The notes beneath the pieces were generated by a model. It ran no database searches. It saw only the letters and a list, made by a program, of their open reading frames with translations, and had not been told where the DNA came from. The position numbers and the translations under genes were made by a program. DNA of 64,000 bases from Minisyncoccota bacterium. GTDB taxonomy: Bacteria > Patescibacteriota > Minisyncoccia > Phycocordibacterales > UBA6065. Positions within the stretch are counted from its first letter, which is position 1. Every line of letters starts with the position of its first letter. This document shows positions 2,249 through 22,841 of the stretch, piece by piece. The DNA lies in the NCBI GenBank assembly GCA_035714745.1, contig DASTLR010000007.1:6205-70204 (forward strand), written 5' to 3'.

Positions 2249-2263
2249 TTTATTGAATAACAA

Positions 2264-3902: not shown

Positions 3903-3911
3903 AGGATTTGA

Positions 3912-4916: not shown

Positions 4917-4940
4917 GGTATTTATGAATTGTTTATTTGG

Positions 4941-6878: not shown

Positions 6879-6882
6879 GTTT

Positions 6883-7557
6883 TTACTGGTTAGATCGGAT
6901 CGCATCTACTTTCTCTGAAATAAGGTCATTATTGATTCCCATTCTCGGATCGTCATAGACAAATCTCACGACCCCTGCGGCGTCTATGACTACATAGCTA
7001 TGGCCAGGATACGCGCCCTTGTGCATGGAAGACGGCGTAGCGAGCATGCCGAGAGACGACGAAACGTTCTTATCCGTGTCGAAGAGAACCTTCGCGCCTG
7101 CGAGCTTCGGCATTTTCGCCACCGCTGTCCCCCAATTAGACGCTGAATCCACGACAATCGAATAAGAAGCAACTGATTCTGAATTTAGCCTTGGATCCGA
7201 GGAGAGCTGCACCATCTGATTCCAACAGGACGGATAGCACATGAGTCCTTCATTGAAGAATAGGACCACGGTCTTACCCTTAAGCTCTGAGAGACGAAGT
7301 GTATTGCCGTCCTTATCAGCGAGGCTGAAGTCCGGTGCAGGCTTATCGACGAGATCCTTTATCTCCGAAGCAGTCGAGGGCTGGCTTGAGTGATGGCCCG
7401 ACATGTCTCCCGAATTCGAGCGGGCCATGTGAGAACCGCCGGCGCTTGCTTGCGCTTGATCAGAGTCTCCCGAATTATAGTTTGCATATAGAACACTACC
7501 GATAATCGCAAGAGCTATGATCACGAAGCCGTAAAATATCTGATTTGAATTTTTCAT
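6883..7557 (-). CDS. thioredoxin-fold redoxin (AhpC/TSA-ResA-like), membrane anchored
   Basis: APDFSLADKDGNTLRLSELKGKTVVLFF is the AhpC/TSA-redoxin N-terminal signature. An active-site Cys pair (CYPSC) follows. Confidence 0.6.
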   Translation of the reverse strand: MKNSNQIFYGFVIIALAIIGSVLYANYNSGDSDQAQASAGGSHMARSNSGDMSGHHSSQPSTASEIKDLVDKPAPDFSLADKDGNTLRLSELKGKTVVLFFNEGLMCYPSCWNQMVQLSSDPRLNSESVASYSIVVDSASNWGTAVAKMPKLAGAKVLFDTDKNVSSSLGMLATPSSMHKGAYPGHSYVVIDAAGVVRFVYDDPRMGINNDLISEKVDAIRSNQ

Positions 7558-7572
7558 TCTTTTAGTTAGTTT

Positions 7573-8466
7573 TTACTTAGTTGATTTCCACTGCCTGAGA
7601 GCGACCCATGTGATAAGCGCAGCGATAGCCGTAACGATGAGAAGCCAGCCGATTACGGGGAGTCGAACGATTCCCGATAACGTTTCAGTTATCTTCGCAG
7701 CATAGATGTTTATGACGACGCCGCTTCCTGCGTGGGACAGAAGCTTTCCTGTAAATGCAAGATAGAGCGTTATGATTCCCATACCGAGGAACATGAGAGC
7801 AGACACCGACTCCATGAGCGTAATCTCGACTTTTTTAGATCCGAGAGAATAGGTTACCGGCGCAGCGAATTTCTCATGGAGCTTTCCTGACACCTTCGAG
7901 CTATCGAGAATGAAAGCGAGGATGAAGAGGGGCGCTACCATTCCAAGCACATACGCCAGAGTATAGATGCCGCCCCAGAAGAGAGAACCTGGCATAGCTG
8001 CAAGAGCAAGGACGCCGGCCAAGACAGGGGCGCAACATGTGGTCGCTATACCTGAGAATATTCCCAAGGAATAAACTGACACCGCATTGTGTTTTTTGAG
8101 CCGAGGCGTGACATGAAACGGCAACTTGAGATGAACTCCTGTGAGAGTCGACAAACCGAGAGCTATGAGCAGAATGCTGCCCGCGACGAAGATGGGCGTA
8201 TGGTAGGTGCTGAATACCTGTCCAAGTGCCGCCACGCCAAGTCCCAAAGGCAGAAACACGGTCAGTATCCCGAGAAAGAATATGAAGGTCATGAGAAAGA
8301 CCTTGTATTTTTCTCGAAAGATCGAGGCAAGGTATGAAGGCAGGAGAACAGTTATACAGCACGGGGCGAAGAGCGCTGCCACACCGGCGACAAAGGCCGA
8401 GATGATAGAAGCTCCGAGTAACATGTCCATGATGTTCTGATGAAGTTGATAAGAGATTCCAAGCAA
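7573..8466 (-). CDS. cytochrome c biogenesis CcdA/DsbD transmembrane-domain protein
   Basis: Multi-TM protein with FAPCCITVLLPSYL and TTCCAPVL, which fit the DsbD-family Cys-containing TM helix pattern. Confidence 0.65.
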   Translation of the reverse strand: MLGISYQLHQNIMDMLLGASIISAFVAGVAALFAPCCITVLLPSYLASIFREKYKVFLMTFIFFLGILTVFLPLGLGVAALGQVFSTYHTPIFVAGSILLIALGLSTLTGVHLKLPFHVTPRLKKHNAVSVYSLGIFSGIATTCCAPVLAGVLALAAMPGSLFWGGIYTLAYVLGMVAPLFILAFILDSSKVSGKLHEKFAAPVTYSLGSKKVEITLMESVSALMFLGMGIITLYLAFTGKLLSHAGSGVVINIYAAKITETLSGIVRLPVIGWLLIVTAIAALITWVALRQWKSTK

Positions 8467-8534
8467 GCAAAAAAGTCCCGTGAAAAAGGGACTTCAGGTA
8501 GCACAAATCTCCTTATCGAAAGAGAGAGTGCTAC

Positions 8535-8930
8535 CTACGCGAGAGACGGACTCAGTTCAAAGCGAGAAAGCCAGCTATGGACCTTATGTTTGAAAAAATA
8601 ATAAGCTTCGAGTGATCTGCGCCTATAGAAAACAAATAGCTTGTCTTGAGAAGAGAATAGAAAGGCGAGCGACCCAAGAAAAACGACAACAAAGGCTGCG
8701 AGAGCCAGGAGAGTACTCGCAAAAATGGAAAGCGTCGCATTCATCGCGCTCTGATATACAGAGATATTGTGGAGCGCCTCACCCCACTGCATCGGAGGAC
8801 AGGTCGTATTCGGCATCTCAGGATCACAACTCATCTGAGCATGGTTCATACCGATAAAGCCAAATACGCCCGAAAGTAATACAGCGAGGAGAAGCAGATA
8901 TCCGATTTTGTTTAAAGAAATCTTCGTCAT
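8535..8930 (-). CDS. hypothetical membrane protein
   Basis: Two hydrophobic segments and Cys/Pro-rich loop CDPEMPNTTCPP. Confidence 0.35.
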   Translation of the reverse strand: MTKISLNKIGYLLLLAVLLSGVFGFIGMNHAQMSCDPEMPNTTCPPMQWGEALHNISVYQSAMNATLSIFASTLLALAAFVVVFLGSLAFLFSSQDKLFVFYRRRSLEAYYFFKHKVHSWLSRFELSPSLA

Positions 8931-9012
8931 TTCATTACCTCACATTAGCACTTCCATTTTACCATTTTTAGTCTCGACACGCAATTTCATTGTTTCGAAA
9001 TATAACGTATCT

Positions 9013-11151
9013 CTACAACGCCTTGCGCTTAAGCGCGATGGCGTTTATCGCAACAACTATCGTGCTTACCGACATGAGAACAGCCGCGATCGCCGGATCA
9101 AGCAAGATACCTTTGAATGCCAACGCCCCCGCCGCGAGAGGCAGGGCGAAGATATTGTATCCAGCTGCCCACCATAGATTTTGGATCATCTTCCTGTATG
9201 TCATCTTTGACAAATTGATGATCTTCACGATGTCTCTCGGATCATCCCTTACGAGAATGATTCCTGCTGATTCGATTGCAACATTGGTTCCCGCCCCTAT
9301 AGCTATACCGAGATCTGCTTGAGTAAGAGCTGGTGCATCGTTGATACCATCGCCAACCATAGCGACCTTTAGATTTCTCTCTTGGAGCTCTTTTACCTTC
9401 TCAGACTTTTGATGAGGAAGCACTCGAGCGAAATATTCGTCGATCCCCAGCTCTTTACTCACCCATTCTGCGACGTCATGTGAGTCACCGGTGATCATGG
9501 CGGTTTGTACTCCTATTTTCTTGAGAGATTTTATCGTCTCAGATGATTCCTCTCGGATTATATCTGCAAGCGCGATCGCGCCGAGTAACACGCCGTCGCG
9601 AAGGACAAAAACAATGGTTTGTCCTTTTTTGCCCGCGGACTCCAACTTACCTGTCAGTGAATTGGGAAGGTTTATGCGTAGGTTCTCAAGCAGAGCTGGA
9701 CCTCCCACCATGACTTCCTTACCGTCGACATACGCCTTTACACCCTTACCCTTTAATGCCTCGAACTTCTTCGGTTCGAGAAGGGCAATTCTTCGCTCTT
9801 TCGCCTTTGCCACTATTCCTTTTGCAATTGGATGTTCAGAAAGAGAGTCAAGGGAAGCTGCGAGATTCAACACCTCGTCAGTGTCAGTAGTACCCACATT
9901 CCAAATATCGACTACTCCGAACCGTCCCTCAGTAAGAGTGCCGGTCTTGTCGAAAAGAACTATGTCAACAGTCCGCGCAGCTTCAAGCGCCAGCCTCTGC
10001 TTTACAAGAAAGCCATTGTGGGCGGCCTTGGTGGTCGAAATCGATGCGACCAGCGGCACAGCGAGTCCGAGCGCATGAGGACAAGCGATAACAAGAACAG
10101 CGACCAGACGTGCCATAGCAAACGCCACTTCCGCACCCGCGAAGATCCATGAGACAAAAGTAATCAAACCTCCAATAACAGCAACGAGAGTGAGATAAAA
10201 GGCGGCTCTATCGGAAAGCATCTGAAGCCTCGATTTGGAGGCCTGGGCTTCGGCTACGAGACGCATGACGCCCGCTAGAAAGGTCTTATCGCCAATATTG
10301 TCGACCTCGACGCGAAGTGCTCCGTCTCCGTTTATCGTACCCGCAATAACACTGTCATTGACTCTTTTCGAGACAGGCTTTGATTCGCCGGTTACCATCG
10401 ATTCATTCACATCTGATTCACCCTCCAAGATTTTGCCGTCAGCAGGTATTTTGCCTCCAGGTCGGACAAGCACCAGATCTTTCTCTCTAAGTTCAGAAAG
10501 AGAAATAGAGATTGTCTGACCATCACGCAAGACTTCGGCGGTGTCAGGCAAGAGCTTCGATAACTCCTTCAAAGCGCCTTGAGCGCCAGAAACCGCTCGC
10601 ATTTCGAGCCAATGCCCGAGAAGCATGATCGTAATGAGGGTTGTAAGCTCCCAAAACAATGCCTCTTTGCCCGCCAGTACCGCATATACGCTCCAAACAT
10701 AAGCGGCTGATATTGCGATCGCGATGAGCGTCATCATCCCCGGAAGACGACCCTTGATTTCTCTCCACGCGCTCGCGATAAAGACCCACCCACCGTAAAA
10801 GAAAACGAGCGTTCCGAGCACAAGCGGCATGTACTCTATTCCGCGAAACCCTGGCAACGTCCATCCGAACAAAGTCTTGAGGACATCAGCATATATCACA
10901 ACAGGAAGAGTAAGAATGAGACTCACCCAAAACTTTTTCAAAAATACTGATGTGCTGTGACCCGCATGTTTATCATGGTCCATGTGACCTCCTGAGTCCT
11001 TCTTCTTTGAAGACACGGGCAACAATCTCATACCGCATTCAGGACATATCCCCGGCGTCTTCTGAATGATTTTAGGATGCATCAGACACGAGTATACAGA
11101 CCCCTCTTGGAGCGTTGTCTGATGATCTGAATGAGTATGATCTTGCTTCAT
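9013..11151 (-). CDS. copA: heavy-metal (copper) translocating P1B-type ATPase
   Basis: The N-terminal metal-binding motifs (CLMHP...CPECGM), the transmembrane CPH motif, the DKTGTLT phosphorylation site and the GDGINDAP hinge are all present. Confidence 0.92.
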   Translation of the reverse strand: MKQDHTHSDHQTTLQEGSVYSCLMHPKIIQKTPGICPECGMRLLPVSSKKKDSGGHMDHDKHAGHSTSVFLKKFWVSLILTLPVVIYADVLKTLFGWTLPGFRGIEYMPLVLGTLVFFYGGWVFIASAWREIKGRLPGMMTLIAIAISAAYVWSVYAVLAGKEALFWELTTLITIMLLGHWLEMRAVSGAQGALKELSKLLPDTAEVLRDGQTISISLSELREKDLVLVRPGGKIPADGKILEGESDVNESMVTGESKPVSKRVNDSVIAGTINGDGALRVEVDNIGDKTFLAGVMRLVAEAQASKSRLQMLSDRAAFYLTLVAVIGGLITFVSWIFAGAEVAFAMARLVAVLVIACPHALGLAVPLVASISTTKAAHNGFLVKQRLALEAARTVDIVLFDKTGTLTEGRFGVVDIWNVGTTDTDEVLNLAASLDSLSEHPIAKGIVAKAKERRIALLEPKKFEALKGKGVKAYVDGKEVMVGGPALLENLRINLPNSLTGKLESAGKKGQTIVFVLRDGVLLGAIALADIIREESSETIKSLKKIGVQTAMITGDSHDVAEWVSKELGIDEYFARVLPHQKSEKVKELQERNLKVAMVGDGINDAPALTQADLGIAIGAGTNVAIESAGIILVRDDPRDIVKIINLSKMTYRKMIQNLWWAAGYNIFALPLAAGALAFKGILLDPAIAAVLMSVSTIVVAINAIALKRKAL

Positions 11152-11421
11152 TTAGTTACTCTTCAAGCTTGAGTTATGCATCCATACATAATACGCGCCG
11201 AAGATCCAAGCGAAGATGAGCATATACACTGCTCCAAGAGCCATGCTCCACGGATTGCCCCACACAAAACCAGGCAGAGTCTCAAACAATGCATGATGCA
11301 GATCCTGACCGACAGATGTTCTGCCAAGAGGGAGATATCCTCCGACAAGGCAAATCAAATATGCGACCTCTAATCCGAGCACGCACTTCCAAGCGTATGA
11401 CTTTAAAGCTAGTTTTTCCAT
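11152..11421 (-). CDS. small membrane protein (DUF-like) in copA operon
   Basis: Three hydrophobic helices. It lies between csoR and copA on the same strand. Confidence 0.4.
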   Translation of the reverse strand: MEKLALKSYAWKCVLGLEVAYLICLVGGYLPLGRTSVGQDLHHALFETLPGFVWGNPWSMALGAVYMLIFAWIFGAYYVWMHNSSLKSN

Positions 11422-11435
11422 AAAATTAAATAATA

Positions 11436-11705
11436 TTATCTCCTTCGAGATATCCTATAGACTGACAGCATTTCTTTAGTCGCCTTATCGTCTTCGCCCT
11501 TTCTCATCTGATCGGCCACATGTGTTTTCAGATGATGCTCGAGAACAAGGTTCTCAAAGCCTGAAAGAGCCTCCTTAACGGCGGCAGACTGGTTGATAAT
11601 GTCTATGCAGTATTTACCGTCTAAAAGCATTTTCTCGAGGCCGCTAATTTGCCCAGCCGCGATCCTAAGCCTTCTAACAGCATTTTTCAGGTAATCGCTT
11701 TCCAT
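11436..11705 (-). CDS. csoR: CsoR/RcnR-family copper-sensing repressor
   Basis: RLRIAAGQISGLEKML...YCIDIINQSAAV...LEHHLKTH matches the CsoR four-helix bundle, including the Cu ligands Cys and His-x-x-x-His. Confidence 0.85.
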   Translation of the reverse strand: MESDYLKNAVRRLRIAAGQISGLEKMLLDGKYCIDIINQSAAVKEALSGFENLVLEHHLKTHVADQMRKGEDDKATKEMLSVYRISRRR

Positions 11706-11770: not shown

Positions 11771-13054
11771 TTAATTCAAAACGGTGATCTTCTTGTTCCT
11801 AAGAACAATCTTTGATTTAAAACATGTTAGTAAATCTCTCTTTTCAAAAATGTTACCCTCTTTTATTAAATACTTCGCGTAGTTCCTTATATCGATATCT
11901 TTGACTGAATAATCACATGTTTCTCCACCAAGAATTCCGATGCTAAATTTTTTATGCCTTTCGATTTCCTGATGAAGCTTCTTCCGCAACCCGGATTGGT
12001 CAAGATCTATCTTTTCAGTAAATTCGAGTAGTTGTTTTACGAGATCACCCTCTTCGAGATACCCGTTCTTGCAATGCGTATCTCTAATTTTCGTGCATCC
12101 GTAATAAATGTATTTTTTAACAGACCCATCGGCAAGATTCTTGAACTTCTCTTGAGCGGTAATACCTGATCCGCAAAGACCGCATGTCATGAGTTTCGTG
12201 AAAGCAAATTCTTTATTCGTCTCTTTACTCTTTCGCTGGCATCTCAGTTGATTCTGAACTTGGTCAAAAAGCTCCTTAGAGATGAGCGGGGTGTGTTTGC
12301 CTTGGTAGAACTTTGCGCTGTTCTTGGGATATTCAAAAGTGCCGTAATAGAAATGATTGTGGAGGATAATGAAAATATTGCTTAGCGTGAGAGGCTTTCC
12401 GCTCCGAGCAGTGAATTCCCGGTCTTTGAGCCACTGATACACTTTCTTTCCGCCCCAACCCTCATAGCCTACTTTCTCAAATACTTGTTTGATGATCGGG
12501 GCGCGAATCGGATCTATGTGGACCACGCAAACCTCATTCACGTTCGAACTATTCACGTATCCAGTAGGCGCAGGAGCAGGCCATAGGCCCATTTCGCACC
12601 TCGTCCTCAGTCCCCGCTTCACGTTCACGCTCTTATTGTCGTTCTCGAGCTTCGCCTGCGAGCAAAGAATCATGAGGAGGAACTTGTCATTCGGGTTGTT
12701 TGTGAACTTCTGCCCATATGTCCGTATCTCGGCGAGTAATTTCTGATCCATGAGATCCACGACCGAACCGAGGTCTCCTGCGTTTCGGGATAATCGGTCT
12801 GGATGCCAGACGAGAATGCCGTCGTACTTCTTCTCTCGTATCTCGTCGAGGAGCTTCTTGAACTCCTCTCGCTGTCCCGAAGCTTTTGCTGAATGCGCTT
12901 CCCTTTTTATATCGACTATCTCTAGCCCCTCCCGCTCCGCGATCTTCTTCATCTCGTTTACCTGCGATTCGATCGACAGAGCCTGCTTCTCCTCTTGTTC
13001 GGTAGACTTGCGGGCGTACAGGCAATATCGGACCTTGGTTGCTTGTTGTTCCAT
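11771..13054 (-). CDS. large serine recombinase (resolvase/integrase family)
   Basis: The N-terminal catalytic motif YARKSTEQEEKQALSIESQ (Ser nucleophile), a recombinase domain, and the C-terminal zinc ribbon CGLCGS...YYGC are present. Confidence 0.88.
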   Translation of the reverse strand: MEQQATKVRYCLYARKSTEQEEKQALSIESQVNEMKKIAEREGLEIVDIKREAHSAKASGQREEFKKLLDEIREKKYDGILVWHPDRLSRNAGDLGSVVDLMDQKLLAEIRTYGQKFTNNPNDKFLLMILCSQAKLENDNKSVNVKRGLRTRCEMGLWPAPAPTGYVNSSNVNEVCVVHIDPIRAPIIKQVFEKVGYEGWGGKKVYQWLKDREFTARSGKPLTLSNIFIILHNHFYYGTFEYPKNSAKFYQGKHTPLISKELFDQVQNQLRCQRKSKETNKEFAFTKLMTCGLCGSGITAQEKFKNLADGSVKKYIYYGCTKIRDTHCKNGYLEEGDLVKQLLEFTEKIDLDQSGLRKKLHQEIERHKKFSIGILGGETCDYSVKDIDIRNYAKYLIKEGNIFEKRDLLTCFKSKIVLRNKKITVLN

Positions 13055-13380
13055 ACATCCATTGATGACAGAACCATCGGTTTTGCTAAGCCCGAGGCAT
13101 TGGCATCATGTTGACAGCACTAGGTTAAAATCGCTTAACAAAAGGGTCTTTTAGCGATAATATGATGTCGTCAGTAACAACATAGTTACCTAACCCCGTA
13201 TGGCGACATGCGGGCACGGTACGAATACAGTTAGTCACAAGACGATAAAGAACCCATCATCAGGGGTCACGTCTTGTGCTATTTCAGGGAAACCTGCGAT
13301 ATGAGCTTCGGCTCTACCTGGTGGTGGGCTTTTTGTATTTACAGAGCGCCACTGGATTTATCAGAGATCTGAAATAAACA

Positions 13381-13755
13381 ATGGCGAAAATTCTCATATG
13401 TACCCAATGCGGCCACGTCGGAAAACCCGTGTACGCCACGAAAGGAAGCTTCGGCATCGAGATGCTTTTATGGCTCTTCTTCCTCGTACCGGGCCTCATC
13501 TACTCGATATGGAGGCTATCCTCTAAGACGAACGTCTGCGAGCAATGCAAGAGTCCGTCGCTCATACCAGTAACCTCCCCGAATGCGAAGAGTATATTTG
13601 AGAGCACGGGTCAGAACCAGGCAGAATATTTAGATACCGCAAAAAGTCTTGATGCCATCAACGCCAAGAGGGCAAAAACCAGAAAGATCGTCATACTTGT
13701 ACTCATAGCGGTCTTCATCGGGAACATAGTGATCATGTCGGCCATACTGTCTTAA
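13381..13755 (+). CDS. zinc-ribbon (CxxC...CxxC) membrane protein
   Basis: CTQCGH and CEQCKS motifs flank a TM helix. A second C-terminal TM helix follows. Confidence 0.4.
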   Translation: MAKILICTQCGHVGKPVYATKGSFGIEMLLWLFFLVPGLIYSIWRLSSKTNVCEQCKSPSLIPVTSPNAKSIFESTGQNQAEYLDTAKSLDAINAKRAKTRKIVILVLIAVFIGNIVIMSAILS

Positions 13756-13764
13756 ATCATTCCT

Positions 13765-14460
13765 ATGTTCACCTCGCTCAAACTTTTCTTAATACAGGCG
13801 CTCGTCGCCGTAGGAATCATGTCCCCCGCCACCACTACGTCCATTGCGCCCACACCGATCGTAGAACCTCAAGCAATCATCGAAACGATTGCGGAAACCC
13901 CTACGGCCACTACCACGACTATAGAAACTTCTCGTGTCGAAGAAAGACCTGTTACGACTAAGCCTGTCCAGGCTCAGACCTCTGCGCCCGCGGTGAAATC
14001 AAACAACGATGTCCTCATCGTCGTGGAAGAACCCGCACCAACGAAGGTTGATCCGGTCGTGTACGCAAAGCCCGTGAACGGCTCATGCGGGGATGTCGCC
14101 AACAGGAAATTAACGCAAGCGCCGACCGAGTCTCTCTGCACTACAGGAGATCCGACTTCGGTCGAGGAGAAGGACAATACCTACAGCTGGACATGCATGG
14201 GCAAAAACGGCGGCTGGAACGCATCGACATGCCAAGCGTACAAGACCGAGGACGGCGTATGCGGAAGCCTAGCGAACAGCATCGTTCCTCCAAAGTTCAA
14301 CGGCTTCACCAAGGACAAGCTCTGCACGGTCGGGTTCGAGACTATGGTCACGACCGTGGGACAACAGCTGAGCTGGCAGTGTGGCGGCTGGTTCGGCGGG
14401 AAGAACGCAATGTGCTACGCGATTCAGGCGGTAGATCCGAACTCGGTCAGGAGTTACTAG
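13765..14460 (+). CDS. secreted Cys-rich protein with two tandem ~55-aa repeats
   Basis: Signal peptide, then a Thr/Pro-rich linker, then two copies of a four-Cys unit (G-CG...C...W-C...C). Confidence 0.45.
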   Translation: MFTSLKLFLIQALVAVGIMSPATTTSIAPTPIVEPQAIIETIAETPTATTTTIETSRVEERPVTTKPVQAQTSAPAVKSNNDVLIVVEEPAPTKVDPVVYAKPVNGSCGDVANRKLTQAPTESLCTTGDPTSVEEKDNTYSWTCMGKNGGWNASTCQAYKTEDGVCGSLANSIVPPKFNGFTKDKLCTVGFETMVTTVGQQLSWQCGGWFGGKNAMCYAIQAVDPNSVRSY

Positions 14461-14906
14461 GCCCCGTCCTCCGATGAAGACCCCTTGGCTTTCATGCGTT
14501 CCGCATCCTTAACTTTCCGCTTCCTCTCGGCCTCCCATTCATTCACCCATTCTCTAACCTTCGCCTCCGCCTCCCTTCTCTTTCTCGCGGTACGAATCGG
14601 ATCCTCTTCCTGCTCCTGAGCAAATCCTCTCGCGTACCACGGCGATTGCTTGAATTTAGGATGCCTGCGACTAAGCCAATACTGAATGGCCTTCCAATCG
14701 CCCTGCTCCACTTTCTTGAATGCGCCCATTTCAGCCACGTCATTCAAAACTTCATCGCCAGACAAAATAGCTGCGTCGGCGAGTATTGCGAACCATTCCT
14801 CATGCGCCCTCCACCGATAATAGGTCTGTCGAGATATTCCGTGCTTCTTGCACGCGTAAGAAACGATGGAAACCTCTGACAGCGTTTCGAGGAATTTTTC
14901 TTGCAT
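14457..14906 (-). CDS. HTH DNA-binding protein, terminase-small-subunit-like
   Basis: HGISRQTYYRWRAHEEW helix-turn-helix and a charged C-terminal tail. A strong SD sequence (GGGAGGAGG) directly precedes the ATG at 14906. The gene overlaps the upstream MTase gene stop. Confidence 0.5.
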   Translation of the reverse strand: MQEKFLETLSEVSIVSYACKKHGISRQTYYRWRAHEEWFAILADAAILSGDEVLNDVAEMGAFKKVEQGDWKAIQYWLSRRHPKFKQSPWYARGFAQEQEEDPIRTARKRREAEAKVREWVNEWEAERKRKVKDAERMKAKGSSSEDGA

Positions 14907-14917
14907 CCTCCTCCCTT

Positions 14918-16198
14918 TCATTGGTGTATAATTTTTACCTTAAGACCCGTCAGCTTCTCCCAGCGACGGATGATGAGGTCGCAGAACCTCGGCTCAAGCT
15001 CGCATCCGTAGACCCTTCGACCGAGGGATTCGGCGGCAATAAGCGTGCTTCCCGATCCGAGGAAGCTATCGAGGATTATGTCGTTCTGTTTCGTGCACCT
15101 CTTTATCGCCTTCTCGTGGAGCTGTGGCGGCTTCGAGGTTGCGTGCTCATAGCTCCTTGCAGATAGGCGCTTGGCCGTCCACACATCGAACATGCCGTCC
15201 ACTTTCTCTATGAGGTCGTTACCCGTACCCAGCTCCTTATTCATCACTTCGTTGAGATCGGTGATCGATTCGGCGATGTACGGCCTCCCTCTCGTCCCAT
15301 ATACAGCGGGCTCATACGCCTTGTTGAAGGCGACGGTCGGCACGGGATTGAGCGCGTTCTTGAGCCAGAGGCACACGCGCCTGTTCGTGATATCCAGAGT
15401 GCGGTAGAGCTCTTGGACCACGCCAATATAGATCTGATCGCACCAGTAGAAGACGTGCGCGTCTTTGCCGAGATAAAGCAAAGCACACTCCATACTCTTC
15501 TTTAGGAATTCTTTATATTCTCCGAACGAGCGCGAATCGTTCACGTCGCCTCCATACGACTTCTCCCCTCCTATACCTCCGTTATAGTCCACGTCTATGT
15601 TGTAGACGGGATCAGAATAGATCATCGAGGCTCGGTCTTTTCCGAACAGACGCTCCAAAGTCTCCGTCTTCGTCGAGTCGCCACAAATAACCCGATGCTT
15701 TCCAAGAAAAATGATATCGCCAAGCCTCGTCTTCGGCTCCTCTATCTTCTCAAGCTCTGCTTCGACATCGAAATCCTCCTCTTTCACCTCCCTATCCTCG
15801 TCGAATATCTTAGAGAGCTCAATATCGTCAAAGCCTGCGAATTCGAGGGTTTCCAAGTCGAAGGACTTGAGCAGGTCGAAGTCCCAATCACCACCGATCT
15901 TGTTAGAGGCGATGAGATATTCCTTAGACTCTTGCTCAGTGAGCTTCCTGTTCGGAACCCGAACATCGATCAGCTCATCTCCCCTGCCAAGGATTTGGAG
16001 GGCCTTGATGCGCTGGTGGCCAGCCAGTATAGCGCCATTGGTATCGATGGCGGGAATTTCGACGAGATTGTACTTCTTGAGGCTCCTCTTGAGGTCCGAC
16101 ATCTGCTTGTCGGATATCTTGCGAGGGTTGATCTCCTGAGGGATAAGATCGTCCACCTTTCTCTGGACCGTGGTCCATGTGAGCTTCGTGTTTTTCAT
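14918..16198 (-). CDS. ParB-like nuclease domain fused to DNA methyltransferase (N6-A/N4-C class, beta architecture)
   Basis: N-terminal ParB/Srx-like motif (AILAGHQRIKA). The MTase motif IV (SDPVYN) precedes motif I (FLGSGST) near the C-terminus. Confidence 0.75.
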   Translation of the reverse strand: MKNTKLTWTTVQRKVDDLIPQEINPRKISDKQMSDLKRSLKKYNLVEIPAIDTNGAILAGHQRIKALQILGRGDELIDVRVPNRKLTEQESKEYLIASNKIGGDWDFDLLKSFDLETLEFAGFDDIELSKIFDEDREVKEEDFDVEAELEKIEEPKTRLGDIIFLGKHRVICGDSTKTETLERLFGKDRASMIYSDPVYNIDVDYNGGIGGEKSYGGDVNDSRSFGEYKEFLKKSMECALLYLGKDAHVFYWCDQIYIGVVQELYRTLDITNRRVCLWLKNALNPVPTVAFNKAYEPAVYGTRGRPYIAESITDLNEVMNKELGTGNDLIEKVDGMFDVWTAKRLSARSYEHATSKPPQLHEKAIKRCTKQNDIILDSFLGSGSTLIAAESLGRRVYGCELEPRFCDLIIRRWEKLTGLKVKIIHQ

Positions 16199-16355
16199 TG
16201 TGTCACGTGCGCTAGCGAATAAATAGACAGAGGAATCACAAAAGCCTGACTTCATACGAAGGCTCAGCGCACCAAAATCTGATGCACTCAGGCTTTATAT
16301 GAGGTCAGGCGGGTTAAATATGTCTATTTAAGCGGCACCAACACTCTATGTTTCC

Positions 16356-16736: not shown

Positions 16737-16768
16737 TGTGTGTACAATGTGTATAACCTGTGTACAAC
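16737..16768. promoter_or_regulatory. three tandem TGTGTA(C/T)AA repeats (putative operator) in divergent promoter region
   Basis: TGTGTACAA at 16739 and 16759, and TGTGTATAA at 16748. Each has a TGTACA palindromic core. The repeats lie 50-80 bp upstream of the LexA-like gene. Confidence 0.5.
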
Positions 16769-16820
16769 ATTTCTCGCGAAATGTCTTGCATGAGTAAAGT
16801 AGAAGAGGTAGGATTGGGTC

Positions 16821-17462
16821 ATGCATCAGATACAGAAAAAGCTCATAGAGCTCATCAGCAACCGCGAAGACGCAGGTTCGCTTAGCCTCAGGAAGATGGC
16901 GGAGATTGTCGGCGTACCAAATCGGCCCCAGACCATCAAACACCACCTCCAACAGCTCGAGAAGAACGGGCTGATCCAAATGAACCTTGAGGAGAAGTTC
17001 CTTAAGCTCGTGAAGAAAGGCTACAACAAGCCCGTAGCGAGCCCGCTCTATTCCCTGCCCGTCGTAGGCATGGCGAACTGCGGACCAGCCGCCGACATAG
17101 CCGAAGAGAACGTGAGCCAGTACCTCAAAGTATCGTCGAGGATGCTCCCCCGCAACAAGGAGAGGCTCTACGCCCTCATCGCGGACGGCCAGTCCATGAA
17201 CAAGGCGAAGATAGACGGCAAGACGATAGAGGACGGTGACTTTGTTCTCGTGGACGGAAATTGCAAGACGTTTAAGAACGGCGACATTGTAGTTGCGGTC
17301 ATCGACGGCATGGCGACCATCAAAAAGTATAGGTTCAACAAAGGGGATGAGACCATCGTTCTCGAGGCGGATTCAACGGAGAAGTACCTCCCCATCTTTC
17401 TCCATGAGGGCGACGACTTCCTCCTGAACGGGAAGGTTATCGGCATTATCAAAGCTAAGTAA
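16821..17462 (+). CDS. LexA/CI-like repressor (wHTH + S24 self-cleaving peptidase)
   Basis: N-terminal winged HTH. The C-terminal ADGQSMNKA...GDFVLVD...K fits the Ser/Lys dyad fold of S24 peptidases. Confidence 0.8.
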   Translation: MHQIQKKLIELISNREDAGSLSLRKMAEIVGVPNRPQTIKHHLQQLEKNGLIQMNLEEKFLKLVKKGYNKPVASPLYSLPVVGMANCGPAADIAEENVSQYLKVSSRMLPRNKERLYALIADGQSMNKAKIDGKTIEDGDFVLVDGNCKTFKNGDIVVAVIDGMATIKKYRFNKGDETIVLEADSTEKYLPIFLHEGDDFLLNGKVIGIIKAK

Positions 17463-17469
17463 TTACAAC

Positions 17470-18663
17470 ATGGCAGCAAAAATTGAATTCTTTCCCGTAG
17501 ACAACGGAGACATGACACTCCTGACGCTTGAGAGCGGGCGCCAGGTGCTCATTGATATCCACATCAGACAGATTGATGATTCTGAGGAATCACCACCAGA
17601 CGTTACGACCATGCTCCGCAATCGACTGAAACGAGATGAACAGAACCGCCTGTACGTCGACGCTTTCCTGCTCACCCACCCAGACGAGGATCATATCCTC
17701 GGACTCTCTGAACACTTCCATCTCGGACCAATCGAAGACTGGGACGAGGATTCCGACAAAATTATCATCCGAGAGATGTGGTCGTCTCCGATCATATTCC
17801 GCCGAAAGAGTACGCTGGCTGAAAAAGCGAGCGTCACACTTTGCGATGACGCCATCGCTTGGTGGAACGAGGCGCGCCGACGAGTAAAAGCTTTCAGGGA
17901 TGGAGACGGTCTCAACGACGGTAACCGAATTCTTGTGCTAGGAGACGATATTGGCGATAAGGAAGCGGGATTGGAACAAATCAATATCCGCATCGGAAAT
18001 AGCTTTAGCCACATCTGCGGAACCGAGGACGGCTCTGTGATTATTGACTTGCTCGGCCCATTGCCTCAGCAGGAAACCGAAGAGGACGAAGAGGCATTGG
18101 CGAAAAACCGCTCAAGCGTAATAGCCCGTTTCCGATTCACGATAGACGATACAGATGATGCATTCATGTTCCTCGCCGGAGGAGACGCCGAAGTGTTCGT
18201 ATGGGAGCGCATTTGGGACATGCATAAAGACCATCCCGCAACCCTCTCCTACGACCTTCTTCAGACACCTCATCATTGCTCATTTCATTCAATGTCCTCA
18301 GACAGCTGGTCCGAGCGAGGCGAGGATGCGAAGGTGAATTCGAAAGCGTTGAACGCTCTGTCCCAAGCAAAGAAAGGCGCAAGCATAGTTTCTAGTTCAA
18401 AGCCGATTTCGGACGATGACGATGATCCTCCTTGCGTTCGCGCCGCGCGCGAATACGAGGCAATTGCCAAAAGGGTTGGTGGAAAGTTCATATGTACAAT
18501 GACACACCACGGAGAGGGAGAGCCTGACGTGCTTCTCTTCACGCTTGGCGAAGATGGTGGAAATAAAGGATACCATTCCCCTATTCCAACCGGCCCAGTA
18601 ATCTCTCGCCTCGACCCGCCAACAGGAGAGTTTGAAAAACACGGTGGCGGTCGTTATGCCTAA
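17470..18663 (+). CDS. metallo-beta-lactamase-fold protein
   Basis: FFPVDNGDMTLL...LIDIH...LLTHPDEDH (HxHxDH motif) and later His and Asp ligands. The 3' end overlaps the next gene by 32 nt. Confidence 0.78.
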   Translation: MAAKIEFFPVDNGDMTLLTLESGRQVLIDIHIRQIDDSEESPPDVTTMLRNRLKRDEQNRLYVDAFLLTHPDEDHILGLSEHFHLGPIEDWDEDSDKIIIREMWSSPIIFRRKSTLAEKASVTLCDDAIAWWNEARRRVKAFRDGDGLNDGNRILVLGDDIGDKEAGLEQINIRIGNSFSHICGTEDGSVIIDLLGPLPQQETEEDEEALAKNRSSVIARFRFTIDDTDDAFMFLAGGDAEVFVWERIWDMHKDHPATLSYDLLQTPHHCSFHSMSSDSWSERGEDAKVNSKALNALSQAKKGASIVSSSKPISDDDDDPPCVRAAREYEAIAKRVGGKFICTMTHHGEGEPDVLLFTLGEDGGNKGYHSPIPTGPVISRLDPPTGEFEKHGGGRYA

Positions 18664-20467
18664 GTCAACAACAACACACCGCAGGACATTCCGTGAGTCC
18701 ATTTCGAATGTCGACAAGTTTCTTCGAGAAAAACTCGGAAACGCGATTAGCACCCTCTCAAATAGAGAGCTGAGCGGTTATGATAACGGCCATCGCTTTG
18801 TGCGTGGATGGAAAATCAAAGACAAATCGCTCGAGGCAATATTTAAAGTCTTGATTCCAAGCGACTTTCCATACGGTGTCCCAAGAATCGCGATTGAGGA
18901 TCTAGAAGAACCCGACAGGGATCTCGGTAAAACTGTCCCCCACATTGAAGGCAAGGGTCTCCTCTGCCTCCCGAAGCTCAATGCTTCTCCAAGCAACCCG
19001 ACAGGACTTGTGCGCGAGCTACTCCAGATGGCGAAGACATACATAGAGACCTTCTCTAACCAACCAGAAAGGGTTGATCAAGATTTCCAAGACGAGTTCA
19101 TCTCTTATTGGAATCGACATAGGACAAAGGATGCGGACCCGATCTTGTCGCTAATCGACCCCCTCTCTGAGACGCATGAGATAATGGTCAGCAAGACGAA
19201 GGATGGTTTCCTGATCGTTGGTGAATCGACCGAGACCATCAGCAGCTGGCATAAAAATCGATTTCCGATGACGAAAGAGCTACCTTTTCAAAAAGGTCTC
19301 TTTATAAAATTGGACAAACCCCCGATACCAGAGCAGTTTCCAGATACAGTTTCGGAACTTAAGAATCTGATCGTATCTAATGCTCCAAGCGCCCTAAATG
19401 CCTTTATGGGGCGCCTAATAAACGTGAACCCGTATGTCGTTATAATGTCGTTCGCCAAGGGCTCCGAAGTCGGACTTATCGGCGTAAGCATTCTTAGCAA
19501 CACCGACAAGTCGCGAATCACCCGCGGCTTCAGAGGCACCGCCTACATGACCCCCGAAATGAAACTGAATCGACTGACAGAGCACTCGGAAACCAAAAGA
19601 TGTCAGGTAGTCCGCCTAGAACATGATTGGGTGCACGGCCGAGGCAAAGACACGTCTCAAGGTATCTTAAAGAAATCGAGGGTAACAATCCTTGGTTGCG
19701 GTTCTCTGGGTTCTCATACGGCAGTACGGCTCGCACAAGCGGGCGTGGGACAAATCACCCTAGTGGACCCAGAAAGCCTTGATGCCGCTAACGTGGGGCG
19801 ACATGCTTTGGGAATCCGCCACATAGAAAGGTCGAAAGCATATTCTCTTTCAGAGGAGCTAAGGGAGCGATTCCCTCACCTTAAAATCCTACCTTGTCCT
19901 ACGAAATGGGAGATTCTGATGGAGAAAAATTCAGATCATTTTAAAAAAGCCGACCTCGTCATAAGCACGATTGGTGAATGGCATGCGGAGGGGCCATTAA
20001 ACGAATGGCAGTCATCAGAAGATTTAGCCCCACCAATCCTATACGGTTGGATGGAGGCGCGCGCATCGGTCGCACACGCAGTGCTGATAAAAAAACCAGG
20101 TCCATGTCTTCAGTGCGTATTGGAAGAAAACGGCGACATGAGGGCGCCTGACTCTGAAGGTTGGCCTGATAACGATGGATTGGAATCAGAACCAGCGTGC
20201 GGCTCAACGTTTCAACCCTACGGACCCATCGATCTAGCTTTCGCTGAAGCCCTCGTCTCGGACCTGGCCATCGCCATGTTGACAGGAGATCAGGTAGAGA
20301 GCATTCATAGGGTACACGCGGTGTCTAAAAGCCGCATGGAAAAACTTCGAGGAAAATGGACAGATACCCACAAAAAGTTTCGTCCCGAGGGTTTCAACGG
20401 GAGCTTCCAATATGAGAGGCCCTTAAAGAAACACAAAGAGTGTCCACTCTGCTCACAAAAAACATGA
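18632..20467 (+). CDS. Cap2-like E2-E1 fusion protein (UBC-like E2 domain + ThiF/MoeB E1 domain)
   Basis: N-terminal PHIEGKGLLCLPKL fits the E2 HPN-x-G-x-(I/L)C(L) catalytic-Cys motif. The central VTILGCGSLGSHTAVRLAQAGVGQITLVDPE is an E1 Rossmann/GxGxxG motif. The C-terminus has CLQC and CPLC Zn Cys pairs. Confidence 0.85.
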   Translation: MKNTVAVVMPKSTTTHRRTFRESISNVDKFLREKLGNAISTLSNRELSGYDNGHRFVRGWKIKDKSLEAIFKVLIPSDFPYGVPRIAIEDLEEPDRDLGKTVPHIEGKGLLCLPKLNASPSNPTGLVRELLQMAKTYIETFSNQPERVDQDFQDEFISYWNRHRTKDADPILSLIDPLSETHEIMVSKTKDGFLIVGESTETISSWHKNRFPMTKELPFQKGLFIKLDKPPIPEQFPDTVSELKNLIVSNAPSALNAFMGRLINVNPYVVIMSFAKGSEVGLIGVSILSNTDKSRITRGFRGTAYMTPEMKLNRLTEHSETKRCQVVRLEHDWVHGRGKDTSQGILKKSRVTILGCGSLGSHTAVRLAQAGVGQITLVDPESLDAANVGRHALGIRHIERSKAYSLSEELRERFPHLKILPCPTKWEILMEKNSDHFKKADLVISTIGEWHAEGPLNEWQSSEDLAPPILYGWMEARASVAHAVLIKKPGPCLQCVLEENGDMRAPDSEGWPDNDGLESEPACGSTFQPYGPIDLAFAEALVSDLAIAMLTGDQVESIHRVHAVSKSRMEKLRGKWTDTHKKFRPEGFNGSFQYERPLKKHKECPLCSQKT

Positions 20468-20961
20468 AAGACTTAACCTACAAACTACCTGGGTCTTTGG
20501 GCATAGTAATCTTCAGCGAGGCTGCGCTCAGAACAATCTCAACGTATCGTCAGTGCGGCTTCTTCAGCAAGGAAGCAGGAGGGCAGCTATTTGCAGAAAT
20601 TGAGAACGGTGTCATGCGAATAGTAGACGCGACCGAACCAAGAAAAAAAGACCGTCGAGGGAAATTCAGCTTTTGGCCCCACCGACCAACTGAACAAACC
20701 GAAATCAAGGAACGCTTTAAGAAAAAAGGCTTGCACTTCGTAGGCGACTGGCACACTCACCCTGAATCCACGCCATCCCCTTCTGGGAGCGATGCAAGAA
20801 GTATCGCAGAGACCATGAGGCAAAGTCGCCATACCCTGCCAGGCATCCTATTAGTAATCATAGGGACCTTAGAGCTTCCCGACGGTCTATATGTCGGATT
20901 CCAAACCAAAACGATGCTCTACAAGCTTGATGTGTTGACGACTGGCGAAAAAGTGGTTTAA
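20440..20961 (+). CDS. Cap3-like JAB/JAMM (MPN+) isopeptidase
   Basis: EAGGQLFAEIE...GDWHTHPESTPSPSGSD matches the E...HxH-x7-S-xx-D JAMM zinc site. The gene overlaps the E2-E1 gene by 28 nt. Confidence 0.85.
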   Translation: MSTLLTKNMKDLTYKLPGSLGIVIFSEAALRTISTYRQCGFFSKEAGGQLFAEIENGVMRIVDATEPRKKDRRGKFSFWPHRPTEQTEIKERFKKKGLHFVGDWHTHPESTPSPSGSDARSIAETMRQSRHTLPGILLVIIGTLELPDGLYVGFQTKTMLYKLDVLTTGEKVV

Positions 20962-20970
20962 GCGTATTAT

Positions 20971-21573
20971 TTGCTCATGACCGATAAGATATTCTCTAAG
21001 CTGAACGTATACGACCAGATCGGATATCTGCTTGTTGGCAGCATCGCCTCACTGGTTTTCCTTTTCAACAACAAATTACTCGGCTCCCCTATCGACATCC
21101 CGGCTTTTGATATCAGTAGCCTAATCATATGGGCGATCGTGGCTTATTTCGTGGGTCATATCGTCCACGCAGTTGCCAATATAATCATCAAAGAAAATAA
21201 AACCGATTTCTCCGAATCGGACAAGGAGATACTTGAACGAGGAAAGCACTTCTTCGACCTCAAGAAGCAAGAACTCAATGCCACATATCTCTTGTGTTAC
21301 ATGCTCGCGTCTGCAAAAGATGTAACGGGCCAAGTCCAATCATTCAATGCGTACTACAGCCTGTATCGGGGCTGGTTCATAATTTTCCTGCTAGAGATGA
21401 ATTTCCTTTCATTTACGAGCATAATGCATGGCTTCAGCCTGCACATCCTCATACTTTTCAGCATAGCCTCATTCATTGCCTATCTCACCCTCAATAGAAC
21501 ACGAAGGTTCTACGGCTACTCTCGCGCAAAGACACTTCAAACATTTACTCTGATTGAGAAACTCAAACTATAA
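20971..21573 (+). CDS. multi-TM membrane protein (candidate effector)
   Basis: About four hydrophobic helices. The start is 10 nt after the JAB gene stop, and the 3' end overlaps the next gene. Confidence 0.45.
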   Translation: MLMTDKIFSKLNVYDQIGYLLVGSIASLVFLFNNKLLGSPIDIPAFDISSLIIWAIVAYFVGHIVHAVANIIIKENKTDFSESDKEILERGKHFFDLKKQELNATYLLCYMLASAKDVTGQVQSFNAYYSLYRGWFIIFLLEMNFLSFTSIMHGFSLHILILFSIASFIAYLTLNRTRRFYGYSRAKTLQTFTLIEKLKL

Positions 21574-22141
21574 TCAGAATCGTATGAAGCCAAACAATTT
21601 TCTTCAGAAAATCGGCATAGAAAGAGGAAATCTCAAACCGTTTTCACTCTTCGTGCTGGGCATTATCCTAGTCACAACCGCATTTACTGTAACTCCATTC
21701 TTTGCAACTATCGGTCCAGCAATTCTTATCATCGTCTTTGGTGTCTTTTTCTCAATCCTGTGGTTTGTTGCTGGCTATGCTGTATTCCGCTCACTCCTCG
21801 TCGCGAGCGTCGGGCTCAGCTTCATCATATTCATAGGCCAGTCTTACTGCGACCTGCCTATTGACGAGCGCGTGGCAGACAGCGCGCTGATGACCCTTAT
21901 TGGATTCGGCTTCATCTATGTGACAGCGCAATTCGGCAAGTCTCTCTACAAGGAATTATTCGGAGACAAAGATGCAAAGGAAGATTGGAAGCAAAAGGGC
22001 ATGATTGGCGTTCTTAAAGAGATCAATCAGAACAAGCATTCATGGCTCGCGCTCATCACATATGGACTGCTTATAAGTCTGTTCATCTGGCAGGTTAATA
22101 GCGTAATCAGACCAATTATTAACGGCCTCTGCGTGTACTAA
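21554..22141 (+). CDS. multi-TM membrane protein (candidate effector)
   Basis: About four or five hydrophobic helices. Last gene of the overlapping operon. Confidence 0.45.
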   Translation: MRNSNYNQNRMKPNNFLQKIGIERGNLKPFSLFVLGIILVTTAFTVTPFFATIGPAILIIVFGVFFSILWFVAGYAVFRSLLVASVGLSFIIFIGQSYCDLPIDERVADSALMTLIGFGFIYVTAQFGKSLYKELFGDKDAKEDWKQKGMIGVLKEINQNKHSWLALITYGLLISLFIWQVNSVIRPIINGLCVY

Positions 22142-22142: not shown

Positions 22143-22313
22143 ATGGCATTTGCAACGAATGGTACGCCCAACATGAAGGGTCTTGAGGATAAGGTAGAGA
22201 AGCTCCAAGAACTGCTCAAGAAAAGGAGGTGGTGGGAAACTACCTGGGTGCAGATCATTGCCTTTATAGGGGCAGTTGCTGGTATCGTCAGCCTCTATAC
22301 CCTTTTCGAGTAG
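22143..22313 (+). CDS. small C-terminally anchored membrane protein (56 aa)
   Basis: MAFATNGTPNMKGLEDKVEKLQELLKKRRWWETTWVQIIAFIGAVAGIVSLYTLFE. Not in the ORF track (<60 aa). It starts 2 nt after the previous gene. Confidence 0.3.
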   Translation: MAFATNGTPNMKGLEDKVEKLQELLKKRRWWETTWVQIIAFIGAVAGIVSLYTLFE

Positions 22314-22335
22314 CCACTGTCGCTCCCAAACAAAA

Positions 22336-22633
22336 TATGGAGAAAAAGAATTACAGGATGAAGGCCGAGGCAGGAACCTTCAAGCTCACCCTGAATGTGC
22401 TGAGGGTCACTCACATGAGGCCCGGCTTCAAGCGTTTCCTAAGAAGGGTCTGGGCAGGCTTTTCACTAAGTGGGGATACCACTAAACATCCCGAGGGAGT
22501 GATACTGAGCAGGGTCGTCGATAGAGAGAACAATAAGTACGAAGAGCTGGTAATCGATAATAAGACCGGCACGGTCGCACGATCCGTACAAGAACCGCTA
22601 ACCGAGCATTTCTCCAGATCAAAGAAATCATAA
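22336..22633 (+). CDS. hypothetical protein
   Basis: Internal Met (MEKKNYRMKAEAG) of the 22229-22633 ORF. No domain recognised. Confidence 0.3.
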
Positions 22634-22755
22634 TCCTTAAAGCAGTGTCACTTTTGTCACATTTTGGTCGCTCAGGACGGGTCGATTTGATAAAATTAGG
22701 AACGTCACAAAAGCGTTGCTGGGTATAGCATCGTTTGGTTCTATCCCGAGAACGC

Positions 22756-22792
22756 CAACCAAGTTGAGAGTAGTTTATATCGCTCAGGACGG
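22756..22792. repeat. attR-like direct repeat with degenerate tRNA-Gln 3' fragment
   Basis: CAACCAAGTTGAGAGTAGTTTATATCGCTCAGGACGG. A degenerate copy of the tRNA T-arm/acceptor lies upstream (TTGGTTCtATcCCgAGaaCGcCAACCAAG). An extra copy of TCGCTCAGGACGGGT sits at 22667-22681. Confidence 0.65.
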
Positions 22793-22841
22793 GTGCTCTA
22801 GTATCAAAGTTACAAATCAGAAAATCTGATACAATTTTGGT

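Follow-up and report, generated by a model that had tools for sequence, protein, structure and literature searches.

A probable split-ligase variant of the 6A-MBL anti-phage system as cargo of a serine-recombinase island in Candidatus Paceibacterota

The window analysed here is a stretch of 64,000 nucleotides (nt) from a Minisyncoccota bacterium (assembly GCA_035714745.1, contig DASTLR010000007.1, positions 6,205 to 70,204 of the forward strand), and its subject is a run of six plus-strand open reading frames (ORFs) at 16821-17462, 17470-18663, 18632-20467, 20440-20961, 20971-21573 and 21554-22141. An initial annotation had described six co-directional, closely spaced genes forming a ubiquitin-like conjugation operon, and all six ORFs are indeed present. 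The operon probably represents a variant form of 6A-MBL, an anti-phage system with a metallo-beta-lactamase-fold (MBL) protein encoded upstream of E2, E1 and JAB domains, and is carried as cargo of a serine-recombinase island at tRNA-Gln in Candidatus Paceibacterota, of the candidate phyla radiation (CPR). With the start codons favoured below, and with lengths in amino acids (aa) and transmembrane (TM) proteins numbered in order, the genes are as follows.

16821-17462, plus strand: LexA-like repressor, 213 aa
17470-18663, plus strand: 6A-MBL-type MBL-fold protein, 397 aa
18656-20467, plus strand: Cap2-like E2-E1 fusion, 603 aa when read from ATG 18656 (the ORF begins with TTG at 18632)
20464-20961, plus strand: Cap3-like JAB/JAMM isopeptidase, 165 aa when read from ATG 20464 (the ORF begins with GTG at 20440)
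20977-21573, plus strand: TM1, a Csx27-like membrane protein, 198 aa
21584-22141, plus strand: TM2, a membrane protein, 185 aa

The ATG codons at 18656, 20464, 20977 and 21584 are likely to be the true starts of the last four genes, because they agree with the gene calls of relatives, with database entries and with the points at which alignments to hidden Markov models (HMMs) and PDB entries begin. With these starts the five junctions measure +7, -8, -4, +15 and +10 nt; the MBL and E2-E1 genes overlap by 8 nt, with the ligase ATG lying within ...TATGCCTAA, and the E2-E1 and JAB genes overlap by 4 nt (ATGA). The earlier statement that the genes are packed with overlaps or gaps of 10 nt or less thus holds as to tight packing but fails at the gap between JAB and TM1, which is +15 nt with the revised start. 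Position 16737, from which the unit had been said to run, is not a gene start, as an ATG there meets a stop after six codons and the first gene opens at 16821.

The assignment of the first four proteins to S24/LexA-like, MBL-fold, E2-E1 fusion and JAMM peptidase families is upheld by Pfam, PADLOC and NCBIfam matches well beyond chance, and the motifs reported for them, namely the E2 motif PHIEGKGLLCLP, GCGSLGS, the CxxC pairs CLQC and CPLC and the JAMM motif HTHPESTPSPSGSD, are all found in the window proteins. Profile searches agree that the ligase, originally called as a 611-aa protein, is an E1/E2 relative: Prok-E2_B (4.2e-10) and ThiF (2.4e-22) both match above their Pfam cutoffs, and the PADLOC E1-E2 model PDLC00836 matches over the full length (8e-160). 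Cys104 lies in the E2 motif, followed by GCGSLGS at 347-353, CLQC at 484-487, EPACG with Cys515, and CPLC at 596-599; C104, GCGSLGS and C515 are invariant in 7 ligase orthologues, and the cysteine spacing is comparable to that of C493/C496/C513 in E. coli Cap2 (PMC10097602). Sequence searches of the PDB with the ligase match Cap2 chains 7to3/7tsq, in the E1 adenylation domain only; the E2 domain is not detected in these searches, and the E2 call is therefore based on Pfam and PADLOC. The JAB protein matches Prok-JAB (2.1e-13, 50.6 bits against a Pfam cutoff of 25) and the PADLOC JAB model (4.7e-54), carries Glu37 and H97-x-H99-x7-S107-x2-D110 as its active-site pattern, and finds the 9ild peptidase among solved structures (5.8e-12); its score against the NCBIfam Cap3 model, 66.8 bits, lies under the cutoff of 200. 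A nucleotidyltransferase domain is absent from all six proteins by Pfam, PADLOC and NCBIfam, in line with the original observation that the operon has no cyclase.

It is the MBL protein that places the operon. The initial annotation could not assign the combination to any named system, and a literature search for E2-E1, metallo-beta-lactamase and JAB together found no match. The MBL protein nonetheless aligns to the NCBIfam model NF058524, 6A-MBL_enzyme, with 391.7 bits (2.8e-117, residues 7-363 on profile positions 1-346 of 346), above the equivalog cutoff of 220 bits; comparison proteins score 446.7 bits in a canonical locus (L004) and 406.6 bits in a split-type locus (L094). An operon of this type, with an MBL gene and E2/E1/JAB, is row 6a in Table 1 of Iyer, Burroughs and Aravind 2006, row 6b of which later became type II CBASS, or anti-phage signalling based on cyclic oligonucleotides (PMC1779556). 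The earlier reading was therefore only partly right, because the gene combination is already a named system. Van den Berg 2024, who reportedly named the system and tested it, is cited in two papers for 6A-MBL anti-phage activity and for a Cap2-type conjugation pathway (PMC11601596, PMC13276650); protection of P. aeruginosa, jumbo phages included, is likewise reported in citing papers, and a further study counts 6A-MBL among jumbo-phage defences (10.1101/2025.09.30.679545). The window MBL protein is 100% identical to its NCBI entry, and the family is sizeable, with 1769 database matches to the MBL protein, 376 confirmed genome loci and 279 plasmids; the canonical form is common on enterobacterial plasmids, and 127 of the 279 are from Klebsiella. 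For the comparisons that follow, 80 genome and 79 metagenome loci (numbered with an L) were used, with 99 distinct MBL loci in the analysis of C-terminal tails. Conservation of gene order, which had been left to be checked, is found across the set, the MBL gene being followed by E2/E1/JAB in 80 genome loci.

These loci fall into two subtypes. In the canonical one, E2, E1 and JAB form a single gene of 740-840 aa that matches the model NF058523, 6A-MBL_cap2_3, well above its cutoff of 320 bits (598.7 bits in L004, 556.4 bits in L017). In the split subtype, to which the window belongs and which accounts for 22 of the 99 distinct MBL loci, an E2-E1 gene of ~600 aa is followed by a JAB gene of ~170 aa; the two separate window proteins score 62.6 bits (E2-E1) and 31.1 bits (JAB) against NF058523, and the ligase half of this subtype would escape current NCBIfam rules for 6A-MBL. 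Ligase architecture and MBL tail type co-vary over ~100 loci: the MBL protein ends in xR[YH]A, of the ...K-x-GGGRYA type, in 20 of 22 split loci, and in ...QPLxHG plus 0-6 extra residues in 73 of the 77 fused or undetermined ones. Rather than a new kind of system, the window operon is the known 6A-MBL in a variant form, with a split ligase, a CBASS-type tail, a LexA-like regulator and an associated Csx27-like protein. It shares with canonical 6A-MBL an MBL family member at equivalog level, the position of the MBL gene upstream of E2/E1/JAB, a flexible conserved C-terminal MBL tail, a multi-TM gene that often lies downstream, and the lack of both a cyclase and a ubiquitin-like protein. It differs in that the canonical ligase is one fused E2-E1-JAB protein, whereas the window has E2-E1 and JAB apart and of a CBASS-type clade, and in its ...GGGRYA tail as against ...QPLxHG.

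Two side observations concern tails and architectures. Some canonical MBL proteins (in L030, L032, L035, L038, L049, L057, L063, L065 and L071) continue past ...HG, for example as ...HGCGSDLA, ...HGKGRP or ...HGAA, and because 1-6 residues follow ...HG in such proteins, the JAB domain may trim a pro-tail from them to expose the terminal Gly. In L177 (6001-8951), a Parvibaculum-type locus, the genes after a GGGRYA-tailed MBL encode E2 (224 aa) and E1 (353 aa) separately and no JAB gene was called; here too a large serine recombinase lies alongside, as does a ParB_N protein. The locus represents a third architecture or else a copy in decay.

Type II CBASS, in which Cap2 and Cap3 act on the C-terminus of a cGAS/DncV-like nucleotidyltransferase (CD-NTase), a subject with which Ledvina 2023 is reportedly associated, resembles the window operon in having Cap2 and Cap3 as separate, overlapping genes, with the same catalytic Cys pattern and JAMM motif. 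The resemblance extends to the substrate. A metagenome scan with an alignment of split-type Cap2 proteins recovered nearest relatives, at 35-57% identity, with an MBL gene upstream, and relatives at ~30% identity with a non-MBL partner upstream; of 39 such partners, 38 are DncV-like CD-NTases and the other is an enzyme of the guanylate-cyclase type. The tail of the window MBL, with its terminal Ala, is of the same GGGR[YH]A type (terminal Ala or Gly) as that of the related CD-NTases, and of the 53 distinct partner proteins listed that are not MBLs, 49 carry such a tail. In a crude neighbour-joining tree, the window's MBL-linked Cap2 clade is sister to CD-NTase-linked Cap2 proteins, among which a second MBL-linked group is nested. 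Viral contigs scanned with the Cap2 alignment held a single distant relative and gave no sign of a phage-borne system. Cap2 forms a thioester with the C-terminal Gly or Ala of the CD-NTase, and that terminal residue is conserved only in operons with both Cap2 and Cap3 (Jenson 2023, PMC10097602). Given this rule, the low model confidence of the MBL tail, the co-variation of tail with ligase type and the same tail on CD-NTases, the MBL protein is very likely the conjugation substrate, one of the roles that the initial annotation had put forward for it. The window operon differs from type II CBASS in lacking a CD-NTase and an effector that senses cyclic nucleotides, the enzyme that would be conjugated being a ComEC-like metallo-hydrolase. 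As a separate observation, one related split Cap2 (alignment A3, metagenome loci L103-L169) has a Guanylate_cyc-domain, Pycsar-like partner.

Structure prediction bears on what that hydrolase does. The AlphaFold2 (AF2) model of the MBL protein has a pLDDT of 82.6 and a pTM of 0.85, with a pLDDT below 50 over residues 363-397, so that this tail, ending ...GGGRYA, is probably disordered. Among solved structures the model is closest to ComEC's beta-lactamase-like domain (9ic4, with E 1.8e-11 and a target-based TM-score of 0.70), followed by INTS11, RNase J, CPSF73 and RNase Z. Across 24 homologues the MBL motifs HPDxDH (HPDEDH here, 70-75), GGDAE (237-241) and PHHCS (267-271) are invariant, and the H-x-D-x-D-H and HH-x-S type motifs are common to the window protein and the ComEC/Rec2 nuclease domain. 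Unlike that domain, the window protein stands alone and is not fused to a ComEC channel domain; it is soluble and has extra insertions (397 against 266 aa) as well as the conjugation tail. Its N-terminal segment also gives weak matches to the PADLOC MBL models of LmuA, DRT RTasMBL, Avs1a and PDC-M48B. The protein is best read, from its modelled fold, as a metal-dependent effector nuclease. The suggestion that its gene might be a diverged nucleotidyltransferase is ruled out by the NF058524 match and the fold results.

The initial annotation had treated the two membrane proteins as equivalent parts of the system, and here the comparisons part company with it: TM1 belongs to a Csx27-like family that recurs with ComEC-like MBL proteins, and TM2 belongs to the island. 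Csx27 is a family of accessory membrane proteins of type VI-B1 CRISPR systems, which Makarova et al. 2019 are said to have linked to ComEC-like, ubiquitin-like and DNA-modification genes. The TM1 family has 224 members of ~195-205 aa, with strongly conserved polar motifs and named sources that are mostly CPR metagenome-assembled genomes (MAGs); the PADLOC Csx27 model matches 21 of 34 family members, at best with 5e-8, and the AF2 model of TM1 (pLDDT 89.7) shows four long hydrophobic helices, with no Csx27-like protein among the solved structures to set beside it. TM1 and Csx27 appear alike in size (~200 aa) and in having four TM helices, but the TM1 family differs from the VI-B1 proteins in having no Cas13b nearby, in its mostly CPR sources and in its occurrence in restriction-modification clusters. 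In CPR loci that retain sequence downstream of JAB, a family member lies 3' of JAB in the window, L001, L081 and L092, with diverged copies in L002 and L083. Elsewhere, TM1 homologues in three unrelated restriction-modification-type neighbourhoods are always flanked by ComEC-like MBL proteins of 275-305 aa, one or two of which adjoin each homologue, with NCBIfam ComEC_Rec2 matches among them. From this recurrence TM1 is likely a membrane partner of the MBL protein. Over the wider set, the ORF next after the ligase gene encodes a multi-TM protein of 170-270 aa in 46 of 82 loci; the ORFs concerned form at least three sequence clusters, of which only that of TM1 is detectably Csx27-like.

The restriction-modification neighbourhoods themselves are those of L085-L087 (4256-6618), L088/L089 (6001-8926) and L090/L091 (6001-7501), the clusters being GmrSD_N with a methylase and ResIII, MmeI-type with a PLD-helicase, and a HinfI restriction-modification system. 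In L088, at 6588-7982, a 464-aa AGS_C (Pfam) protein lies between the TM1 homologue and the MBL protein, and its N-terminal segment aligns with the beginning of the model for the 6A-MBL enzyme (3e-8). The PADLOC candidate PDC-M48, a TM protein with an MBL protein, appears to be the same pairing.

The operon sits in an island whose integration at a tRNA gene, proposed earlier, is borne out by a 75-nt direct repeat at the 3' end of tRNA-Gln and by a lower GC content within. The island spans 20.5 kb, with a GC content of ~47-50% inside and ~60% outside, and its landmarks are as follows.

2144-2217: tRNA-Gln, its 3' end overlapped by the left att-like repeat
2190-2264, plus strand: left att-like direct repeat, 75 nt
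11771-16255, minus strand: conserved backbone upstream of the operon, with Pfam matches
11771-13054, minus strand: large serine recombinase
14457-14921, minus strand: small helix-turn-helix (HTH)/terminase-small-like protein
14918-16255, minus strand: ParB-N6/N4 DNA methylase
22734-22808, plus strand: right copy of the att-like repeat, with 77% identity across 75 nt, placing the island end ~600 nt past TM2

The recombinase, HTH and ParB-methylase genes have orthologues, arranged alike, in L001, L081, L083, L084, L173 and L174. In the sister islands L173 and L174, which match the window in the recombinase (5e-178), the ParB-methylase (1e-221) and TM2 (3e-80), ThsB_TIR and 8xMP genes replace the whole block from LexA through MBL, Cap2 and Cap3 to TM1, and TM2 is kept. 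The TM2 family comprises 46 homologues with named sources in Paceibacterota/Parcubacteria MAGs; one homologue, in L171, lies in an unrelated context, and TM2 does not adjoin the operon in L001, L081 or L083. Because it is retained beside other cargo, TM2 is judged to be a backbone gene flanking a swappable defence slot and not a component of the system.

Some features of the island lie apart from these subjects. CPR genomes (the window, L173/L174, L081, L083 and L084) have this integrative-element backbone in common, and the swappable slot between the ParB-methylase and TM2 holds the 6A-MBL-type operon in the window and ThsB_TIR with 8xMP in L173/L174. Between TM2 and the right repeat (22143-22633) are two small, overlapping ORFs, neither with a family assignment, of 56 aa (one TM helix, starting 1 nt after the TM2 stop) and 134 aa. 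The left part of the island, 2292-11705, is a copper/redox resistance cluster with a multicopper oxidase, a YHS-domain protein, a thioredoxin-like AhpC/TSA protein, a DsbD-like membrane protein, a P-type heavy-metal ATPase and a CsoR-type repressor. The phage-like neighbours once described for the operon amount to the serine recombinase, the small HTH protein and the ParB-methylase, and structural phage genes were not found in the island. With the copper cluster on its left, this led to the rejection of a prophage in favour of an integrative island.

The pairing of TM1 with MBL proteins also admits a different function, for which the chances appear slight yet better than those of any other rival: instead of a dedicated anti-phage system, the operon might encode a machine for DNA uptake and degradation under ubiquitin-like regulation, with TM1 as a DNA channel and the MBL protein degrading one strand or the imported DNA. 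CPR bacteria are thought to depend on scavenged nucleotides, and such a machine could suit them; the channel hypothesis is said to originate with Makarova et al. 2019. The ComEC nuclease domain is the best structural match of the MBL protein, ComEC_Rec2 matches occur in the MBL proteins beside TM1 homologues, and the pairing itself recurs, and PMC7642515 cites the hypothesis second-hand. Against uptake, however, the slot filled by the operon holds the defence gene ThsB-TIR in sister islands, TM1/MBL pairs elsewhere lie within restriction-modification clusters, the ligase clade is one common to CBASS, and canonical 6A-MBL is cited, in the sources named above, as experimentally anti-phage.

Less credible again is signalling of the CBASS kind, in which the conjugated MBL protein would make or destroy a small-molecule signal and one or both membrane proteins would kill the cell. 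The MBL protein does hold the exact position and tail of the CD-NTases in related Cap2/Cap3 operons, and TM1 is tightly linked to the operon, membrane effectors being common in CBASS. Yet the closest fold relatives of the MBL protein act on nucleic acids, TM1 carries no recognisable nucleotide-sensing domain, and 36 of the 82 6A-MBL loci have no adjacent TM gene. Neither in TM1 nor in TM2 did Pfam, NCBIfam or PADLOC detect a cyclic-nucleotide sensor, whether SAVED, STING, Cap15-like or other.

The remaining gene of the operon is regulatory. The repressor has an N-terminal winged HTH and an S24 domain (LexA_DNA_bind 0.0039, Peptidase_S24 3.3e-18), a UmuD-type Cys87-Gly88 site, Ser125 and Lys168; 5 relatives show no change in the Ser/Lys dyad or the cleavage region, and from these features the protein is predicted to be LexA-like and self-cleaving. 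Its score against TIGR00498 (lexA), 87.1 bits, is under the cutoff of 110.95, and it is thus not the housekeeping LexA. Upstream of the gene lies a candidate control region with the following parts.

16740-16790, plus strand: operator/promoter-like region upstream of the repressor gene
16740-16747, 16749-16756 and 16760-16767, plus strand: three GTGTAnAA direct repeats
16767-16784, plus strand: palindrome ACATTTC-tcgc-GAAATGT, from an inverted-repeat search
16786-16790, plus strand: TTGCA, a -35-like element abutting the palindrome

L001 and L083 keep the layout of repeats, palindrome and TTGCA upstream of their own orthologous repressor genes, the palindrome of L083 (arms ACTTTAC and GTAAAGT) being perfect, and L081, with the other LexA-like subtype, has a perfect palindrome of its own, TGCAAAaTTTGCA. 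A sigma-70 consensus scan upstream of the gene found no promoter and nothing above shuffled expectation, so that the putative promoter and operator at 16740-16790 are placed by conservation across loci. In the window, in L001, L081/L082 and L083, and also in L020, which is of canonical type, a LexA-like gene immediately precedes the MBL gene; such a gene is missing from non-CPR split loci and from the sister islands with other cargo (L173/L174), a distribution that points to the repressor as an optional regulator linked to the cargo and not to the backbone. That it is instead the island's own CI-type repressor of excision or transfer, lying beside the defence genes by accident and with the six genes not forming one functional unit, is very improbable: prophages and integrative elements are often under the control of HTH plus S24 repressors and the gene does lie within a recombinase-bearing island, but sister islands with the same backbone and other cargo are without it, the position directly upstream of MBL genes, L020 included, is taken by two LexA-like subtypes that diverge from each other (identities of 35% and 28%), and the gap to the MBL gene is only 7 nt, or 1 nt in L083.

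As a cargo-linked regulator, the protein has its nearest counterparts in the S24 self-cleaving repressors LexA, UmuD and CI and in local transcriptional regulators of defence operons, such as CapW/BrxR, which are of WYL type, and CapH-CapP. The features that count towards this likeness are the HTH and S24 domains, the Ser-Lys dyad, a UmuD-like Cys-Gly site and a palindromic operator at its own putative promoter, directly upstream of defence genes. The window repressor differs from CapH-CapP in being a single protein, and from CapW/BrxR in not being a WYL protein. One inspected Klebsiella plasmid 6A-MBL locus has a divergent WYL protein at the place of the LexA-like regulator; this locus, L176 (Klebsiella pneumoniae plasmid NZ_CP046614.1, 124582-135673), is a canonical 6A-MBL with umuD downstream.

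Under the reading of the operon as a 6A-MBL variant, a sequence of events can be proposed, in which tail conjugation, nuclease action, membrane coupling and induction of the SOS type are each deduced by analogy. The LexA-like repressor would bind the palindrome at its own promoter and hold the operon off until RecA-stimulated self-cleavage at Cys87-Gly88 tied expression to DNA damage or phage replication, a coupling that we infer. The E1 domain would then adenylate the terminal Ala of the MBL protein, which would pass as a thioester via Cys515 to Cys104 of the E2 domain and become linked to a lysine, either of a target or of the MBL protein itself. By analogy with the CD-NTase in type II CBASS, conjugation may prime or localise the nuclease, and the JAB peptidase would reverse the bond. 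The MBL nuclease, probably at the membrane with the Csx27-like TM1, would degrade invading or cellular DNA.

Several points weigh against this reading. The case for a nuclease role of the MBL protein is drawn from its modelled fold, the window E2-E1 protein falls below the cutoff of the 6A-MBL cap2_3 model (62.6 against 320 bits), and the Cap2 tree was built by neighbour joining and carries no support values. The closest locus, L084, has no repressor, and the repressor is therefore dispensable. The Csx27 match of the window TM1 itself is weak (E 6.9e-4), and no homology to TM1 could be detected in the TM proteins that follow canonical ligases (hhalign probabilities of 0.8-7%; Csx27 matches in 3 of 28), for which reason no single TM family is claimed. 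Finally, anti-phage activity and the link between Csx27 and ubiquitin-like genes are taken from secondary citations.

To our knowledge, the defence repertoire of the Patescibacteria is little characterised, and the locus documents in this group a serine-recombinase island with an exchangeable slot for defence cargo. The CPR version of 6A-MBL brings to the system a LexA-like, putatively self-cleaving repressor with a conserved operator, and a Csx27-like protein that pairs consistently with ComEC-like MBL proteins. The shared tail is good comparative evidence that the MBL protein is a conjugation substrate and that payloads have been swapped between 6A-MBL and CBASS. More tentatively, and with the odds somewhat against it, conjugation within one Cap2/Cap3 clade may depend on a single label, the short portable C-terminal peptide ...K-x-GGGR[YH]A, which evolution would have attached on two or more occasions to enzymes unrelated to each other (CD-NTases, ComEC-like MBL nucleases and a Pycsar-type cyclase), with the CPR version being an SOS-gated, membrane-coupled (Csx27-like) nuclease defence. 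If so, split 6A-MBL variants and type II CBASS would be one system with an exchangeable payload and not separate ones, and if the tail alone suffices, any enzyme could be redirected into the conjugation pathway.

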